From IMG/VR virus record IMGVR_UViG_3300015050_001305: a DNA stretch of 20,000 nucleotides, one strand, 5' to 3'. Source of the stretch: an uncultured virus (IMG/VR IMGVR_UViG_3300015050_001305). Taxonomy: Duplodnaviria > Heunggongvirae > Uroviricota > Caudoviricetes. Of the stretch, positions 904-19,940 are shown piece by piece; position 1 is the stretch's first letter, and each line of letters begins with the position of its first letter. Under the pieces are notes generated by a model, which saw only the letters and a program-made list of their open reading frames with translations, ran no database searches and was not told the origin of the DNA. Made by a program: the position numbers and the translations under genes.

Positions 904-930
904 TGAAAGTATTTGCAGTGACAACTGTAG
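904..930 (+). promoter_or_regulatory. putative ECF-type promoter TGAAAG-N16-TGTAG
   Basis: TGAAAG 904-909, TGTAG 926-930, intergenic, 16 nt before ATG 947; same motif at 7041, 8483 and 17758(-). Confidence 0.6.
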
Positions 931-3762: not shown

Positions 3763-4179
3763 ATGAAATTAACTGAGATTCTAAAAGAATACGACCCGCC
3801 TAACAATCTTAGGATAAAACGTCAGGTTTGGGGCGAATACTACGTCAACGTTCATCAACACCTGCTGCTTGATAGCAAAGGTAGCAGTGCATGGCTAAGC
3901 GCTGTAGATGTCAACGCAGATGATTGGATTATGGTCAAGGAACCCTTATTGTCCTCGCTGGCGAATCTTTTGCTGAAGCATGAAACAACTCGCCTACCTA
4001 TCTTTAAGCGGGCAGGCTGGAATTCACCCCATGAGAATGCAGCTGCTATTGACGAGGAGGGAGACCTGCTCTTGATGAAAGACGGCGTGGTCACAGATGA
4101 CCCATTTAGAATGACGGTGATGGACATCATGGCAGATGACTGGTTCTATGCTGGGAAGCATAGAACCAGAACCGGATGA
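3763..4179 (+). CDS. tandem DUF2829/Tad2-like repeat protein (putative nucleotide-signal sponge)
   Basis: Two copies of KRxxW...DxxADDW (RIKRQVW...DVNADDW; FKRAGWN...DIMADDW); AAGGA SD upstream. Confidence 0.6.
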   Translation: MKLTEILKEYDPPNNLRIKRQVWGEYYVNVHQHLLLDSKGSSAWLSAVDVNADDWIMVKEPLLSSLANLLLKHETTRLPIFKRAGWNSPHENAAAIDEEGDLLLMKDGVVTDDPFRMTVMDIMADDWFYAGKHRTRTG

Positions 4180-4243: not shown

Positions 4244-6283
4244 ATGAGTATTGTAGTTCAACAAAATGTCTGGGTAGCCATTTACCCCTATGCTCAGCGC
4301 CAGGTGCCCAAGGATGCCGGCTTTGCCTGGCACGGCGACGACTGTCGACCGAGCTGTGCGGGCTGCAAGATTGGCCTGCGGCACAAGGTTTGGTGGACGG
4401 CTAAACCTGAATGCGCGGCACTATTGCGGTCGGAATGTGATGAGGCAGCCTTGGCGCTCTTAACGCGGCATATCACCAGCGTAGAGGCGTCCAAGGCCAT
4501 GGATGCTGATATCGATGTGCCTGTACCGCCTGGGTTGGCTTATTTGCCTTACCAGAAGGGTGCGATTGCCTATGCGCTGGCGCGGCCTAATACGCTAATC
4601 GCAGACGAAATGGGGCTTGGCAAGTCGATTGAGGCGCTGGGTATCATCAATGCGTCTCCGCATGTCAAATCGGCGCTGCTGATTGTGCCGGCTTCGCTAC
4701 GGCTGAATTGGGCGCGTGAGGCGAAGAAGTGGCTAGTACGTGACGTTAAGACGTTTGTGGTGGAGGAATCTAAGAGTCAGATTCCTGCAGATGCTGAGCT
4801 GGTCATTGTTAACTACGATCTGATTCGTAGCAAGCGCGTGAACCATCCTGGAGGGCTGTTGGATACGAGTGGCAAGCTGGTTAGACAGCTGCAGTCTTCG
4901 CTCATTCATGCACAGCTCATGGCGCGCAGCTGGGATGTCATGATTGTCGATGAATGCCATCGTTTGAAGGATACGAAAGCGCTTCAGTCTATTGCCATGT
5001 TTGGCGTTGCTGAGCAGAAGCGTAAGGGTATTACGGCGGTGCCGGGGTTGATGCATCAGGCGAAACAGATGGTGTTTTTATCTGGTACGCCATTCCAGAA
5101 TAAGCCTATTGAGATTCAACCTATTTTGGCAGCCTTGGTGCCATCTGAGTTCGGTAACTTTTTTGCTTTTGCGAAGAAGTATTGCAATGCGCATCAGGAT
5201 GATCGCGGCCACTGGGACTTCGACGGCGCATCGAATATGCCTGAGTTGCAAGAAAAGCTGCGTTCAACGTGTATGGTGCGGCGGCTCAAGCGGGATGTGA
5301 TGCGCGAATTGCCACCGAAGCGTCGGCAGGTAATTCTGCTGCCTGCGGATGGCGCGGCCAAGGCGGTGGCGGCTGAGACCAAGGCTTGGGCAATGCATGA
5401 AGAGCGTTTGGCTATTTTGCGCAATGAGGCTGATTATGCGCATGCGGCGAATGATCAGACAGCGTACAAAGCGGCGGCTGAAGCACTGCGGGCAGCTGGC
5501 AAGATAGGTTTTGAGGAGATTGCGCAAGAGCGCAAGAATGTCGCCATGGCTAAGCTGCCTAGGGTGATTGCGCATCTCGAAGATGCCTTTGCGCAGGGCA
5601 TCGAGAAAATTGTTTTATTTTGTTATCACCACGATGTCAGTAATGCCTTGATGGCTCACTTTGGTGATGCTGCCGTTAAGCTGACAGGAGAAGTGACATC
5701 TAATAATGAACGCCAGCTGGCGGTAGACAGATTTCAAACCGACCCAGCTGTAAAGTTATTCGTCGGATCTATTGGCGCAGCCGGCGTGGGCCATACGTTA
5801 ACCGCGTCCTCTACGGTTATCTTTGCTGAGTTGGATTGGGTGCCGGCCAACGTTTCTCAGGCGGAAGATCGATGTCACCGAATTGGTGCTTCGCTACATA
5901 CCAACGTGCTGGTGCAGCATCTGGTACTTGACGGATCTATTGATGCACGAATGGTGCAGCTGTTAATCGAAAAGCAGGAAATTGCGGACGCCGCCTTGGA
6001 CCTGGCTACGGAGATTGACGTACCCGTGACGGCAACTATCTTACGGCGGCCAGGTTATTATCCTGAGGTGTCAGCGCTAAAGCAAAGTGCTGTCCATCGG
6101 GCGATGCAACACCTGTTGCAACTGCCCGCCTTTGATAAAATCGATATCAGCGTAGGCCGGAAGCTCGCATTGGCGGAGACCCTGACGGATGGCCAAGCTT
6201 GGATGGCAGAGGCCTTGGCCAAGAAATATCGTATTCAATTAACCAGTGAGATCTTAGTCGGTATGGGCTTAGATCCTTTCTGA
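4244..6283 (+). CDS. SNF2-family (SMARCAL1/HARP-like) helicase/ATPase
   Basis: LIADEMGLGKS (motif I), DECH (II), LSGTP (III), QAEDRCHRIG (VI); phage-type C-terminal ...LT.GQ...KKY..QL domain. Confidence 0.93.
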   Translation: MSIVVQQNVWVAIYPYAQRQVPKDAGFAWHGDDCRPSCAGCKIGLRHKVWWTAKPECAALLRSECDEAALALLTRHITSVEASKAMDADIDVPVPPGLAYLPYQKGAIAYALARPNTLIADEMGLGKSIEALGIINASPHVKSALLIVPASLRLNWAREAKKWLVRDVKTFVVEESKSQIPADAELVIVNYDLIRSKRVNHPGGLLDTSGKLVRQLQSSLIHAQLMARSWDVMIVDECHRLKDTKALQSIAMFGVAEQKRKGITAVPGLMHQAKQMVFLSGTPFQNKPIEIQPILAALVPSEFGNFFAFAKKYCNAHQDDRGHWDFDGASNMPELQEKLRSTCMVRRLKRDVMRELPPKRRQVILLPADGAAKAVAAETKAWAMHEERLAILRNEADYAHAANDQTAYKAAAEALRAAGKIGFEEIAQERKNVAMAKLPRVIAHLEDAFAQGIEKIVLFCYHHDVSNALMAHFGDAAVKLTGEVTSNNERQLAVDRFQTDPAVKLFVGSIGAAGVGHTLTASSTVIFAELDWVPANVSQAEDRCHRIGASLHTNVLVQHLVLDGSIDARMVQLLIEKQEIADAALDLATEIDVPVTATILRRPGYYPEVSALKQSAVHRAMQHLLQLPAFDKIDISVGRKLALAETLTDGQAWMAEALAKKYRIQLTSEILVGMGLDPF

Positions 6284-7031: not shown

Positions 7032-7040
7032 CGCAATCTA

Positions 7041-7067
7041 TGAAAGATCACACCTCCTGGCTTGTAG
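7041..7067 (+). promoter_or_regulatory. putative ECF-type promoter TGAAAG-N16-TGTAG
   Basis: TGAAAG 7041-7046, TGTAG 7063-7067, 8 nt before ATG 7076. Confidence 0.6.
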
Positions 7068-7075
7068 GTACAACT

Positions 7076-8476
7076 ATGAAAATTATCAATGTCAGACTCG
7101 GCCTCGCTACCAATAGCTCATCCACTCACTCAATCATCTTTTTGCCCAAAGATAAAAATATGCGGTCTACCGACAGCGAGGGCAGTCGTTATGGCTGGGA
7201 TTATTTCCACCTAGCAGACAAAGCAAGCAAGCTAGACTACCTTGCCACTTCACTAATGACGCAACTTCAGACAGAACTAGGCGAAGATATCGCAAGATCT
7301 GTCGTTAATGATTGGTGCAAGAGCGACCTGGACTTTGATGATACCTATTACGTAGACCATCAGTCGACCTTGACCTTCCCGCGAAACTGGGACGGCAAAG
7401 GCCTGGACCGCAAATTCTTTGATGCATTCAAAGAATTTATTGTTCACGATGATATTGTTATCGCTGGCGGCAATGACAATGACGACGAACGACCTTATGC
7501 AATTGAAGCTGGCGGCAGAGATCTTGACTCATTACCTGTAGAGTCATACAGCGCACCATGGGTAGCACGCCAGGACCATGACTATTGGACTATTTTTAAT
7601 CGTGATTCAGGTGCAAAAATTCGGCTTGCCCTCGCATCGCCATTCAATGCGATGCCTCGGCGCAGCACCGCGCCTGAGCTGATTGACATTAAGATTACGG
7701 ACTACTGCCCATTTAATTGCGAATTCTGCTACCAGGATTCAACCTTAAAAGGTGCGCATGCAGACTATGGATGGTTGCAATCACTTGCCTTTCACCTAGG
7801 AGATCAAAAAGTATTTGAAGTCGCACTCGGCGGCGGCGAACCAACCCTGCATCCTAAATTCGTGGAAATCCTGGCCATGTTTCGTTACAGCGGCGTCGTG
7901 CCAAACTTTACAACTAAAAATCTTGGTTGGTTAAAAGATGAAGTGACCCGCGACAAGATTTTGAAATATACAGGCGCATTTGCCTACTCAGCTCAAACCG
8001 CCGAAGATGTCAGAGCGTTTGTAGCGGCATTGCCCAAGAATTTGAAATTTGAAAAGCGGGTAACGATCCAACATGTTGTAGGTGTCGTCGATGCCGATGA
8101 ATTCAAGGCCGTACTTGAAGCCTGTGCCGACGCGCATTTCCCAATCACCTTACTGGGTTACAAAATGGTAGGACGAGGGCCAGCCTTTAGTCCCAAGACA
8201 TCGTCTGCCTGGCTGAATATCGTGAAGGAAGTCTGCGAGCGGAGAAGTCTCCGCGTAGGTATTGATACAGCCTTGGCCGATGATCACTGGGATGACCTCA
8301 AGAATGCTGGGATTTCTGAATGGTTGCTGACAAGGATCGAGGGTCAATTCTCCTGTTACATTGATGCCGTCGCAAAGACAATCAACACGTCTTCTTACAC
8401 TACGCGGGCGGGCTCACCGATGGGGGACCTTCAGTTCGACATTCCAGCGCTGTACGCCGATTTGCCTCATCAGTAA
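7076..8476 (+). CDS. radical SAM enzyme fused to N-terminal 'RxGxxTNSSSxHS' domain
   Basis: CPFNCEFC (CxxxCxxC, 7706-7729), ALGGGEPTLHP, VPNFTT; start likely 7076 (MKIINVRLGLATNSSSTHS) rather than 7040. Confidence 0.9.
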   Translation: MKIINVRLGLATNSSSTHSIIFLPKDKNMRSTDSEGSRYGWDYFHLADKASKLDYLATSLMTQLQTELGEDIARSVVNDWCKSDLDFDDTYYVDHQSTLTFPRNWDGKGLDRKFFDAFKEFIVHDDIVIAGGNDNDDERPYAIEAGGRDLDSLPVESYSAPWVARQDHDYWTIFNRDSGAKIRLALASPFNAMPRRSTAPELIDIKITDYCPFNCEFCYQDSTLKGAHADYGWLQSLAFHLGDQKVFEVALGGGEPTLHPKFVEILAMFRYSGVVPNFTTKNLGWLKDEVTRDKILKYTGAFAYSAQTAEDVRAFVAALPKNLKFEKRVTIQHVVGVVDADEFKAVLEACADAHFPITLLGYKMVGRGPAFSPKTSSAWLNIVKEVCERRSLRVGIDTALADDHWDDLKNAGISEWLLTRIEGQFSCYIDAVAKTINTSSYTTRAGSPMGDLQFDIPALYADLPHQ

Positions 8477-8482
8477 ATAAAG

Positions 8483-8508
8483 TGAAAGAATGGTCGGCTC
8501 AGTTGTAG
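8483..8508 (+). promoter_or_regulatory. putative ECF-type promoter TGAAAG-N15-TGTAG
   Basis: TGAAAG 8483-8488, TGTAG 8504-8508, intergenic, 10 nt before ATG 8519. Confidence 0.55.
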
Positions 8509-10489: not shown

Positions 10490-10606
10490 ACCTATTCTGC
10501 ATTATTCAATAGGATGGCACCATGATTCAATATCCTTCGCATGAGCAACTGTATCCTGACAATGTTATAAGCTGCTGAGTACACCTTGAAAGCGAAATAG
10601 GTAATT

Positions 10607-11620
10607 ATGTATCCATTTTTTTTACACTTGATACGCTTGCTCCTTAGCAAGATAGCTTATCGCGGCATACGCCATGAGCTTGACGAGAACGAATCCAACG
10701 CTGAGGCACCTCCGGCCAAGGAAGTCGCAGCCGAAGTGGCAGAGCTGCCTGCCGCAGTCGATGTTGCAGTAGCGGCGGCTGTTATTGTGCCGCTGGAAGA
10801 TGTCGAGATAGCGCCAGTGGTGGCAGCGCCAGACGTAGATCAGCTGCCAATTCTAAGCGTAGGCATTGATGGATGGTTAATCGGCAAAAAAGTCGTCAAG
10901 GTGCCGACCGAACGAGTCTATGCATGGAGATCTAAGAGCGGTAAACCGTTGGGCGCTTTATGGCATTGGACATCAACGGCGCATGGTACAGCGCTGACAA
11001 TGGCGAAGCGGATCGTCAAGGCACCTGGCACTTCAGTGCATTTATGGATTGAGCATGATGGCACAATTTACCAGTCAGCTCCGATGACTCGCGCAACTGG
11101 CCATGCAGGTGGCAAAACCGCAAAGAGAATGAGTGATCGAAATGGCGTTTGCGTACTCGACTCTAATGGTACGCGTGACGCCAACAGCTTCTTATTGGGA
11201 ATTGAAATGGTCAGCGTCGGCGAGGTCAGACTGGTTATGAAACAGTCCGACGGATCTTACGCTAAGGCCACATCAGATGCGCCAAGCGCAGTTTACATGG
11301 GATGGCCATTTGGCCGATGGGTCAAAGATCACGAGACCGGCAAGCTGGTCATCGGCAAGGGTCCGATCGTTAAGTCGGATCAAGTGAAATCCGCACTAGA
11401 CGAAACTGGCTTGCTTCGACATTACCATGACTACACGCCCGATCAGATCGACGCAATGGAACGGCTTTGCCGGGCATGGCGAGATAAATACGACTGGACG
11501 GATGAGCAAATGTCATGGGGACATATCGACAGCGATCCAACGCGAAAATCAGATCCTGGCCCAATCATGAAAAACAAATGGATGCCAGAGATCTTCAAGC
11601 GGATGCGTAAGGATACTTAA
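10607..11620 (+). CDS. N-acetylmuramoyl-L-alanine amidase (Amidase_2/AmpD-like), probable endolysin
   Basis: LWHWT, SVHLWIEHDGTIYQ, GHAG, NSFLLGIEM, YTPDQ, WGHID...RKSDPGP (His/His/Asp Zn ligands). Confidence 0.88.
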   Translation: MYPFFLHLIRLLLSKIAYRGIRHELDENESNAEAPPAKEVAAEVAELPAAVDVAVAAAVIVPLEDVEIAPVVAAPDVDQLPILSVGIDGWLIGKKVVKVPTERVYAWRSKSGKPLGALWHWTSTAHGTALTMAKRIVKAPGTSVHLWIEHDGTIYQSAPMTRATGHAGGKTAKRMSDRNGVCVLDSNGTRDANSFLLGIEMVSVGEVRLVMKQSDGSYAKATSDAPSAVYMGWPFGRWVKDHETGKLVIGKGPIVKSDQVKSALDETGLLRHYHDYTPDQIDAMERLCRAWRDKYDWTDEQMSWGHIDSDPTRKSDPGPIMKNKWMPEIFKRMRKDT

Positions 11621-13242: not shown

Positions 13243-14268
13243 ATGCCTACTAACATAAGCGATCGAATCAGTGAAATGCAGGCGGAGTTGGAAGAGATCA
13301 AGCGCTTGCCGCCTCGCTCGATTGATGGATCTTTTGATTTTTCAGAAGACACCGATGTCAGCGAATCGATCCAAATCATGGACCCCATGGCGGCGGCGGC
13401 TTATCAGCTGATCGCAGACCATGCGACGGACATGATCTCCGTTCACTCCGACAACGGTCGCTACGTATTCGTCTCATCTGCATGTCGTCGCCTGTTAGGC
13501 TTCAATGCCGGCGAATTGATAGGCCTGAGCCCTCATCGTTTAGGTCATCCAGAGGAAATCGATAAAATTGCGGAATATTACTTTCAGCCGATTGATAATG
13601 TTGATTTGCCATCCATTACTTATCGCTTGCGATGTAGAAATGGAACGTATCGATGGGTTGAGACAACCTCGCGTATTCATGTTTCGCACACAGGCATGCG
13701 CAGAATAATTGCCATTACGCGTGATGTTTCAGAGCGTGAGCGGCTAGTGCGCCAACTGGAAGAGTCGAACCGTCAGCTTATGGCCATTGCCTCGCGCGAT
13801 GAATTAACCGGTGTCGCCAATCGGCGCGCGTTCAACGAACGCCTTAGCTATCTGACGCTAGATTTCCACAGGGGAAGAATCTTCTCGCTGGTTGTAGGCG
13901 ATATCGATAAGTTCAAATTAATGAATGATACGTATGGCCATCAGGCAGGCGATAAGATTATTGGATTGGTAGCTCAAGCGTTAGCGAATGAATGCCGCAG
14001 CATAGATATGGTCGCCAGGTATGGAGGCGAGGAATTTGCAATCCTATTGCCTGGCACCAACGAAGCTGGAGCCCTGGCGCTGGCTGAGCGAGCCAGAGAA
14101 GCAATCAGTAATATAGTCTGCCAGTACGGCCAAGTGACGATGAGCTTTGGCGTCTGCACATCTAGCTCAACGGCCGATAATGAGCATGATATATTTTCCT
14201 TCGCAGATCGCGCACTGTACACGGCCAAGTCAAACGGTCGGAATCGCGTACATCTTCATCGCAGTTAG
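13243..14268 (+). CDS. PAS-GGDEF diguanylate cyclase
   Basis: PAS (DMISVH..GRYVFVS...HPEE...YRLRCRNGTYRWVE...RDVSER), coiled-coil linker, DELTGVANRR, DIDKFKLMNDTYGHQAGD, RSID I-site, RYGGEEF, ADRALYTAKSNGRN. Confidence 0.95.
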   Translation: MPTNISDRISEMQAELEEIKRLPPRSIDGSFDFSEDTDVSESIQIMDPMAAAAYQLIADHATDMISVHSDNGRYVFVSSACRRLLGFNAGELIGLSPHRLGHPEEIDKIAEYYFQPIDNVDLPSITYRLRCRNGTYRWVETTSRIHVSHTGMRRIIAITRDVSERERLVRQLEESNRQLMAIASRDELTGVANRRAFNERLSYLTLDFHRGRIFSLVVGDIDKFKLMNDTYGHQAGDKIIGLVAQALANECRSIDMVARYGGEEFAILLPGTNEAGALALAERAREAISNIVCQYGQVTMSFGVCTSSSTADNEHDIFSFADRALYTAKSNGRNRVHLHRS

Positions 14269-15710: not shown

Positions 15711-16076
15711 ATGAAGGTAGCAATCGTAGGATCTAGGGATTATCTGAACGTCGATGCCATTAAAGACTTCGTTGACTCCCTAGATCTGGACAGCGTCATT
15801 ATCAGCGGCGGAGCCAGAGGGGTTGATGCCATTGCTGAAGCAGCGGCCAGAAAGCGTGGCATGACTGTTACGGTCTTTCTGGCGGATTGGAATCAGTATG
15901 GCAAGGCAGCCGGACATATCAGAAATCAACGCATTGTTGATGAGTGCGACATCTTGGTAGCCTTCTGGGACGGCAATAGTCCAGGCACAAAGGATTCCAT
16001 TTCGAAGGCGAGCAAGGCTGGCAAGCTAAGCAAGGTTTTCAGAGACACCAATCCGACGCAGGGTAATCTCTTCTAA
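15711..16076 (+). CDS. SLOG-superfamily protein (DUF2493/YspA-like)
   Basis: KVAIVGSRDY, IISGGARGVD, ADWNQYGKAAGHIRN, LVAFWDGNSPGT. Confidence 0.88.
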   Translation: MKVAIVGSRDYLNVDAIKDFVDSLDLDSVIISGGARGVDAIAEAAARKRGMTVTVFLADWNQYGKAAGHIRNQRIVDECDILVAFWDGNSPGTKDSISKASKAGKLSKVFRDTNPTQGNLF

Positions 16077-17269: not shown

Positions 17270-17302
17270 TTTAATTAATCCATTATTTAAGATGTCAAAT
17301 AG

Positions 17303-17376
17303 TGGCCCTGGCAAGGATCGAACTTGCAATCTCTGCTTTAGGAAAGCGGTGCTTAATCCAATTAAGCTACAGGGTC
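17303..17376 (-). tRNA. tRNA-Arg(CCU)
   Basis: GACCCTG-TA-GCTT AATTGGATT AAGC-A-CCGCT TTCCTAA AGCAG-AGATT-GCAAG TTCGATC CTTGC-CAGGGCC-A; two stem mismatches, no encoded CCA. Confidence 0.85.
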
Positions 17377-17377
17377 A

Positions 17378-17453
17378 TGGCGCATCCGGTTGGATTCGAA
17401 CCAACGTAATTTTGCTTAGAAGGCAAACGCCTAATCCACTAGACTACGGATGC
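17378..17453 (-). tRNA. tRNA-Arg(UCU)
   Basis: GCATCCG-TA-GTCT AGTGGATT AGGC-G-TTTGC CTTCTAA GCAAA-ATTAC-GTTGG TTCGAAT CCAAC-CGGATGC-GCCA. Confidence 0.95.
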
Positions 17454-17731: not shown

Positions 17732-17758
17732 CTACAGCTGAGCGCTGAATATCTTTCA
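17732..17758 (-). promoter_or_regulatory. putative ECF-type promoter TGAAAG-N16-TGTAG
   Basis: Minus strand TGAAAG 17758-17753, TGTAG 17736-17732; points into ORF 17719 and the tRNA-Arg pair. Confidence 0.6.
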
Positions 17759-19397: not shown

Positions 19398-19940
19398 CTA
19401 GCCCTCTTCTAGAGGATCTGTCCAATAGCAGAAGTCTCTCCATGCCTCAGGCGCTGAAGCTGACGAAATGCGCAATGTCATCGCCGAAGCTCTGGCTGGT
19501 TTAATAGGCAGACACTTCAGTTTCATCCCCGCAGCCTCAGGCGTACGGTTACCTTTTTTGGCATTGCAAGAGTTGCATGCAGAAACGATATTCGTCCACT
19601 CCGTTAAACCACCTTGAGCGCGTGGCTTCACATGGTCATACGTGAGGTCGGACATCGACATCTTCGTGCTGCAATATTGGCATCTGAAATTGTCACGAGC
19701 GTAAATATTGACGCGTGAAAATTTGATGTTCTTTTTGTTGCGACGAAACGCCTGCAAGATTCTAACTACGGCAGGCATTTTAATGACTACCGTAGACGAT
19801 CGAATATCGCACCCCTCGTACTCGCGGAGTACTTCAATCTTGCCTTGGAACAGCAAGGTAATAGCGCGCTGCCAAGAGATGACCTTAATTGGCTCATATC
19901 CTTGAGATAGCACAAGTGTTCGGAATATTTCAGTTGACAC
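19398..19940 (-). CDS. HNH endonuclease (McrA-like, zinc-finger type)
   Basis: TLVLSQGYEP, FSRVNIYARD.FRCQYC, LTYDHVKPRAQGG, WTNIVSACNSCNAKKG.RTP; strong AAGGAGG SD before GTG. Confidence 0.92.
   Translation of the reverse strand: MSTEIFRTLVLSQGYEPIKVISWQRAITLLFQGKIEVLREYEGCDIRSSTVVIKMPAVVRILQAFRRNKKNIKFSRVNIYARDNFRCQYCSTKMSMSDLTYDHVKPRAQGGLTEWTNIVSACNSCNAKKGNRTPEAAGMKLKCLPIKPARASAMTLRISSASAPEAWRDFCYWTDPLEEG

Follow-up and report, generated by a model that had tools for sequence, protein, structure and literature searches.

A phage-like gene joining a serine-rich N-terminal tag to a radical SAM enzyme: a candidate tag-directed protein maturase in a single chain

Enzymes of the radical SAM superfamily use a [4Fe-4S] cluster to cleave SAM, which yields a 5'-deoxyadenosyl radical. 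SkfB, SuiB and CteB direct this chemistry at short precursor peptides, carry Cys-ligated auxiliary clusters, and have an N-terminal leader-binding region (RRE) of three strands and three helices. Another protein-modifying member, anSME (anaerobic sulfatase-maturating enzyme), has a two-cluster SPASM domain and acts on the sulfatase substrate motif C/S-x-P-x-R. In the CteB-CteA complex, as presented in the available portion of PMC8326336, the N-terminal leader peptide pairs strand-to-strand with the RRE. A radical SAM protein also occurs in an antiphage setting: the KpAvs2 operon encodes the radical SAM protein Avap1 and the DUF6375 protein Avap2, whose roles are unassigned in the available text of PMC11564622. 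According to the same text, Avap2 binds KpAvs2, and Avap1 is required against T2 and dispensable against SECphi18; since Avap1 is dispensable against one phage, Avap2 can work without its enzyme.

Our literature search found no description of a module made of a serine-rich tag and a radical SAM enzyme. We analysed a gene that joins the two, located at 7076-8476 on the plus strand of a 20,000-nucleotide stretch of DNA (the window) from an uncultured virus. It would be the one-polypeptide form of a two-part system, consisting of a radical SAM maturase and a substrate with an N-terminal serine-rich tag, and we think it likely that the protein is a tag-directed maturase acting here in cis on an NSSS serine, probably Ser15. 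By analogy it would work like an RRE-type RiPP maturase or like anSME, yet it fails defining features of both. SkfB, SuiB and CteB were the best matches to the predicted structure, N-terminal sheet included, and, as described for CteB-CteA, the N-terminal peptide of a homologous split pair is modelled on the last strand of the sheet. Of the RRE, three strands are predicted here and no helices between sheet and barrel. Cysteines for auxiliary clusters are missing (no Cys column above 46% beyond the triad). The putative substrates also differ, being the heads of folded proteins of 90-300 aa, here within the same chain, and among ORFs above 40-60 aa in the neighbourhoods of tag and fused loci no precursor with protease or transporter genes was recurrent. 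Unlike anSME, the protein has no two-cluster SPASM domain, its tag reads N-S-S-S-T-H-S in place of C/S-x-P-x-R, and neither the N-domain nor the tagged partners matched a sulfatase family.

Layout of the protein and its window

The 466-aa open reading frame, whose protein begins MKIINVRLGLATNSSSTHSII, consists of a tag, a body, a three-strand sheet and a radical SAM barrel, and a database search found the same protein on a contig of 72,887 bases. Starting from an alternative in-frame ATG at 7040, the protein would have 478 aa. We regard 7076 as the likelier start, because the Asn lies at position 13 from a Met in 170 of 241 motif-bearing homologues, and because a promoter-like motif (TGAAAG-N16-TGTA; 7041..7066, plus strand, 10 bases before the 7076 start) overlaps 7040. 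The first-pass annotation had credited the gene with its own copy of this motif, which may resemble an ECF-type promoter, and the copy at 7041-7066 is indeed one of five in the window. For the pattern TGAAAG-N15/16-TGTA, picked post hoc with the sequence already seen, the chance mean was 0.16 and five copies were reached in none of 200 shuffles. Four of the five copies lie directly upstream of ORF starts; those beyond the present gene are found at 904-929 (plus strand, ORF start 947), 8483-8507 (plus strand, ORF start 8519), 17733-17758 (minus strand, ORF start 17719) and 10587-10611 (plus strand). This last copy overlaps the called start of an amidase gene at 10607, which suggests that the true start of that gene is later.

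Dense small ORFs and several PHROG matches give the window the look of a large phage's accessory region, and no structural gene was identified in it. Pfam matches mark an NT5C 5'-nucleotidase (2340-2852), a SNF2-type helicase (4244-6283), the Amidase_2 gene (10607-11620), a YspA-like SLOG protein (15711-16076) and an HNH endonuclease (19398-19940). The window also holds a 138-aa protein (3763-4179, plus strand) with a Tad2-like (Thoeris anti-defence) Pfam match above cut-off (E 1e-5), which looks like two tandem domain copies, a PAS-GGDEF diguanylate cyclase with its GGEEF motif present (13243-14268, plus strand), and two tandem tRNA-Arg genes (CCT, TCT) for AGG/AGA codons (17302-17453, minus strand).

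An N-terminal domain of about 190 aa had been proposed; it resolves into a tag-plus-body domain of about 140 aa, followed by a sheet of the peptide-binding type that belongs to the enzyme. The tag (residues 1-22; 7076..7141, plus strand) reads R-x-G-x-A-T-N-S-S-S-T-H-S. It runs from a strand (2-7) through R7, G9, A11, N13-S14-S15-S16, H18 and S19 to a second strand (19-22), and residues 10-19 have pLDDT below 50 in the full-length structure model. N13-S14-S15-S16, the proposed modification site, is encoded at 7112..7123 (plus strand), with S15 at 7118-7120. The body of roughly 120 aa (residues 23-140; 7142..7495, plus strand) contains all the motifs listed in the first-pass annotation, YGW (39-41), YVDHQS (92-97) and IAGGNDNDD (129-137), and its conserved residues are G40-W41, K52, Y55, D94-H95-Q96-S97, P102 and G131-G132-N133-D134-N135. 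A variable, low-confidence linker follows (residues 141-160; 7496..7555, plus strand), which is a natural split point in L036 and L297. Residues 1-196 gave no Pfam or NCBIfam match and a single PHROG at E 0.059, no family, fold or PDB match was obtained for the body, and profile searches with the N-domain matched no characterised family.

The sheet (residues 162-185; 7559..7630, plus strand) is antiparallel and three-stranded, has invariant G179, K181 and R183, and in the predicted structure overlays the leader-binding (RRE) part at the N-terminus of SkfB and SuiB. The radical SAM core, a partial barrel at 7661..8275 (plus strand), proved intact as had been claimed, with CxxxCxxC at C211/C215/C218 (7706-7729) and GGGE (7829-7840). 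It has the features of the superfamily, namely the Cys triad in 56 of 56 homologues, the GGE motif and a partial TIM barrel fold, and the Pfam Radical_SAM model matched residues 205-356 at 36.4 bits against a cut-off of 29.5. Other invariant barrel residues among the 56 aligned homologues are D204, E248, A250, T279, S305, K363 and D397. In the same alignment no Cys outside the triad is conserved (best other column 46%), and profile searches gave no SPASM match in any of the 56 family members. A Cys-rich SPASM tail is thus absent, as first noted, although a Cys-free twitch/SPASM hairpin remnant persists (8339..8398, plus strand; E-G-x-F-S-x-Y-I-D-A ... S-S-Y) and lines up with the end of Cys-bearing relatives that reads P-C-S-F.

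Among fused proteins, conservation of the body motifs is 91-98%, as expected of a catalytic site, which speaks against the maturase reading. One rival picture is a two-domain small-molecule enzyme, with a viperin-like barrel acting on a nucleotide or metabolite and the N-domain serving as a second, metal-dependent catalytic centre. We hold this to be very unlikely. The prokaryotic viperin model NF038283 reached 25 bits against a cut-off of 180, and the protein has an extra sheet and a tag domain. No pathway gene recurs nearby (apart from the module itself, the commonest neighbour family occurs in 7 of 61 fused groups), and in L298, L299, L300 and L302 the body motifs decay and the tag is kept. 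For Avap1, the authors found no pVip-type nucleotides, as far as the available text of PMC11564622 states.

Fused, split and reversed arrangements

A database protein search returned 2014 matches to the fused form among 8000 scored candidates, and the N-domain profile matched 4594 sequence clusters. The fused-type viral loci numbered 77 in 61 non-redundant groups, with full fusion in 57 groups; 36 of the 77 lie on contigs of at least 100 kb and 20 on contigs of at least 200 kb. A search of 185,579 species genomes yielded just 30 loci, of which all except two came from MAGs, and a plasmid search gave 12 records. The fused architecture is also present in a cultured phage, as gp146c of Salmonella phage Arash (WGL32597.1), which is annotated without evidence as 'methyltransferase'. 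Tabulation of neighbours in the fused groups revealed no gene family travelling with the module and no recurrent protease or transporter. A contiguous intein was observed in six database homologues, and an apparent N-terminal split intein ends eight others; the insertion sites are inside the cluster motif or directly before GGGE. Apparent split-intein pairs occur at L040 4277-7160 and L055 5959-8783, with halves about 1 kb apart and the break in CxxxCxxC, and the intein-bearing or broken homologues include P0150, P0204, P0224, P0256, P0266 and P0268. In P0123 (213 aa) the N-domain is joined to the C-terminal hairpin of the enzyme with no barrel; faulty assembly or a deletion within the gene may explain this.

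The first-pass annotation had described stand-alone NSSS proteins as common in large phages beside radical SAM genes, and the neighbours of tag loci confirmed this. A tag-only search gave 128 viral matches; the 80 with 5-kb flanks were analysed, and 48 and 40 short-flank matches were omitted. A related enzyme lay within 5 kb at 64 of the 80 loci (33 of 43 non-redundant groups), compared with 0 of 80 control loci in a set unmatched in host and genome size; the enzyme cut-off of at least 50 bits is unspecific, as a generic radical SAM/SPASM protein reached 99.6. The remaining 10 of 43 groups had no enzyme in the fetched flanks, and some of these loci end at a contig edge. The chain is split before the sheet in L036, L297, LMM01 and Lak-B1, and after it in L151, RM378 and phiYS40, where the sheet goes with the partner. 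Together with the fused form and a reversed one, these arrangements support the original Rosetta-stone argument that the two parts act together.

Many loci are arrays, with up to six or seven tagged proteins of dissimilar bodies. The tagged proteins include a canonical GW/DH/GND class (n = 44, non-redundant), a short acidic class (n = 46) with little beyond the tag and a C-terminal hairpin, and others. Tags also come in dialects. One of them, RxGFVSNSSSSSF (FVS), begins unrelated proteins that stand in arrays of up to seven, close to a relative of the enzyme that has the extra Cys residues. The enzyme was detected at 16 of 34 raw FVS loci, duplicates counted; the flanks of the other 18 lacked it, several being at contig ends and 8 having no detected tagged ORF. 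In RB16 (L284 4896-6050) the cluster motif of a radical SAM protein of the FVS-associated type is interrupted by an insertion. No tagged gene was found within 5 kb of this gene, and any partner it has lies farther away. A Cys dialect, R-x-G-x-S/A-P-N-C-S, was found at five MAG loci, two of them nearly identical (L307, L310, L312, L313, L316); these myxobacteria-like proteins fuse tag and hydrophobic helix to radical SAM/SPASM with no body. In an isolate of Deinococcus lacus (L299 7953-9431, between relA-like and lepA-like genes) the fusion is reversed: the tag domain follows the enzyme, and in it the tag is intact while the body motifs have decayed. A free N-terminus is therefore unnecessary.

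Asn followed by Ser or Cys is a feature of self-cleaving junctions, and the tag, with Cys in the myxobacteria-like MAG variants, resembles one. NSSS could then be a radical-independent self-processing site (N-to-O acyl shift, pyruvoyl- or intein-like), with the enzyme as a downstream partner. Such processing requires a fixed fold round the site, whereas the tag sits on unrelated bodies; it does not explain why the tag keeps so closely to a single type of enzyme, and a weak fold search matched no such fold to the N-domain. We give this explanation hardly any weight. The tag riding on unrelated bodies, and being the sole modelled partner contact with the enzyme, favours a modification substrate over the second catalytic centre and the self-processing site that had been offered beside it.

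Modelled docking of the tag and the proposed reaction

The complex was modelled on a natural split pair, L176, a homologue of the window protein whose partner lacks the canonical body. It scored 0.83, the best of three controls 0.01; the score mark is a rough guide for L176: 116 of 157 solved complexes attained it, as did 2 of 215 mismatched pairs. Runs shared at least 72% of contacts, with partner pLDDT of at least 58. The best-defined contacts are those of partner residues 2-8 with the final sheet strand, and others line the barrel. Mapped to the window protein, the contacts are G179-R183, D204, E248, A250, N277, T279, S305, L360 and D397, of which almost all are invariant among fused proteins. 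The model supports leader-like recognition of the tag by sheet and barrel, and its pass may partly reflect likeness to solved leader-RRE complexes. The confident interface consists of partner residues 1-13 only, naming no contact past N13 and no SAM distance.

Tight binding would suit an unmodified tag equally well. The tag could be a docking strand or plug, anchoring a specificity subunit or closing off the active site until it is required. The radical would in that case act on something brought by the body domain. The end of the confident interface at N13 fits this, as do the invariant polar set of the body itself and the sheet that moves with the partner, like a docking unit, in RM378, phiYS40 and L151. 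So does an Avap2 deletion that was unobtainable beside Avap1 and KpAvs2, as described in the available part of PMC11564622. However, a strand needs no three to five invariant serines behind it, and the bodies found in arrays differ too much for all of them to bring in the same kind of substrate. Moreover, 12 of the 33 groups with enzyme have no canonical-body partner in the flanks, and 4 have only the short acidic class. On balance we find docking without modification unlikely.

In the preferred reading, modification of the tag, the [4Fe-4S] cluster on the observed C211/C215/C218 motif would cleave SAM to the 5'-deoxyadenosyl radical. The first tag strand would pair with residues 179-185, the final strand of the sheet, in the way that RiPP leaders pair with RRE strand 3, and the G-x-A-T-N stretch would enter the barrel, as modelled on the homologous split pair. 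The radical would then abstract hydrogen from an N-S-S-S serine, most probably S15 and less probably S14. S15 is the sole serine that all five tag dialects share in a gap-free alignment, in which the DUF6375 head was placed by eye, gap-free from Met1 against the FVS tag, and the motifs are short. The equivalent serine (Asn+2) is present in 98% of 56 DUF6375 heads, found with a search pattern that left the position free.

Given the lack of an auxiliary cluster and of any conserved spare Cys, the chemistry likeliest to follow is redox-neutral: dehydration to dehydroalanine, or formation of an aldehyde by C-N elimination. In our judgement this outcome falls a little short of an even chance. Oxidation to formylglycine, as in anSME, we judge rather unlikely, and a cross-link or an epimerisation, to equal degrees, distinctly so. 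The reaction would take place in cis, once per chain, and give a modified N-domain, in which the conserved H18, D94-H95 and N133-D134-N135 may keep the altered residue in place or put it to use. At split loci a single enzyme would serve several tagged proteins.

Avs2-like neighbours and meaning of the module

An NSSS-tagged protein and a radical SAM/SPASM protein lie directly behind a SMEK-STAND (Avs2-like) gene in three operons on Agrobacterium, Rhodobacter and Rhizobium plasmids (L474 3755-8191; L475 3559-8014; L478 3470-7921). These STAND genes score under the Avs2 equivalog cut-off, and the operons are candidates for an undescribed defence variant. Among the window ORFs scanned there was no Avs-like gene. 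Avap2 starts M-K-I-W-x-G-Y-G-S-E-H-S, as given in the available supplement of PMC11564622. Like the split loci of our system, the Avap1/Avap2 pair has the gene for a small protein adjoining a radical SAM gene. The head of this small protein follows M-K-I-x-x-G-aromatic-x-S-x-x-S, with S-E-H-S where the tag has T/S-N-S-S. PF19902 (DUF6375) matched neither the window N-domain nor 13 N-domain sequences or 10 stand-alone tagged proteins. Enzymes of DUF6375 loci resemble ours in having the sheet, GGGEPTLHP and the Cys-free IDA...SSY end, and the enzyme profile matched them with probability 99.0 (E 4e-18). An enzyme stood beside DUF6375-type heads at 55 of 80 loci (37 of 42 long loci), and all three heads tested were confirmed as DUF6375.

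From its occurrence in large phages and its Avs2-like neighbours, the module probably has a role in phage-host conflict. We tentatively entertain a more general possibility, doubtful as a whole, of a tag-activation system in which one radical SAM lineage reads a portable N-terminal strand-plus-serine tag and makes one serine, here S15, reactive. The reactive group would be dehydroalanine or else an aldehyde, whose formation might or might not cleave the backbone, and would provide a covalent handle on many unrelated proteins; phage arrays of small proteins and accessory subunits of NLR-like Avs defence, Avap2 included, would be forms of this system, and the present gene its self-arming single chain.

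The module is present in thousands of sequence clusters, mostly of large phages, and has no described function. Its fused gene is the simplest test object, since enzyme and substrate are in one 466-aa chain, and Arash has a fused copy. If the proposal is true, it predicts the function of the Avap1/Avap2 accessory pair in Avs2 defence and would offer a short tag, transferable between proteins, for chemistry at a chosen site. Modification of the tag by the enzyme, if true, would be a new protein modification employed by phages.
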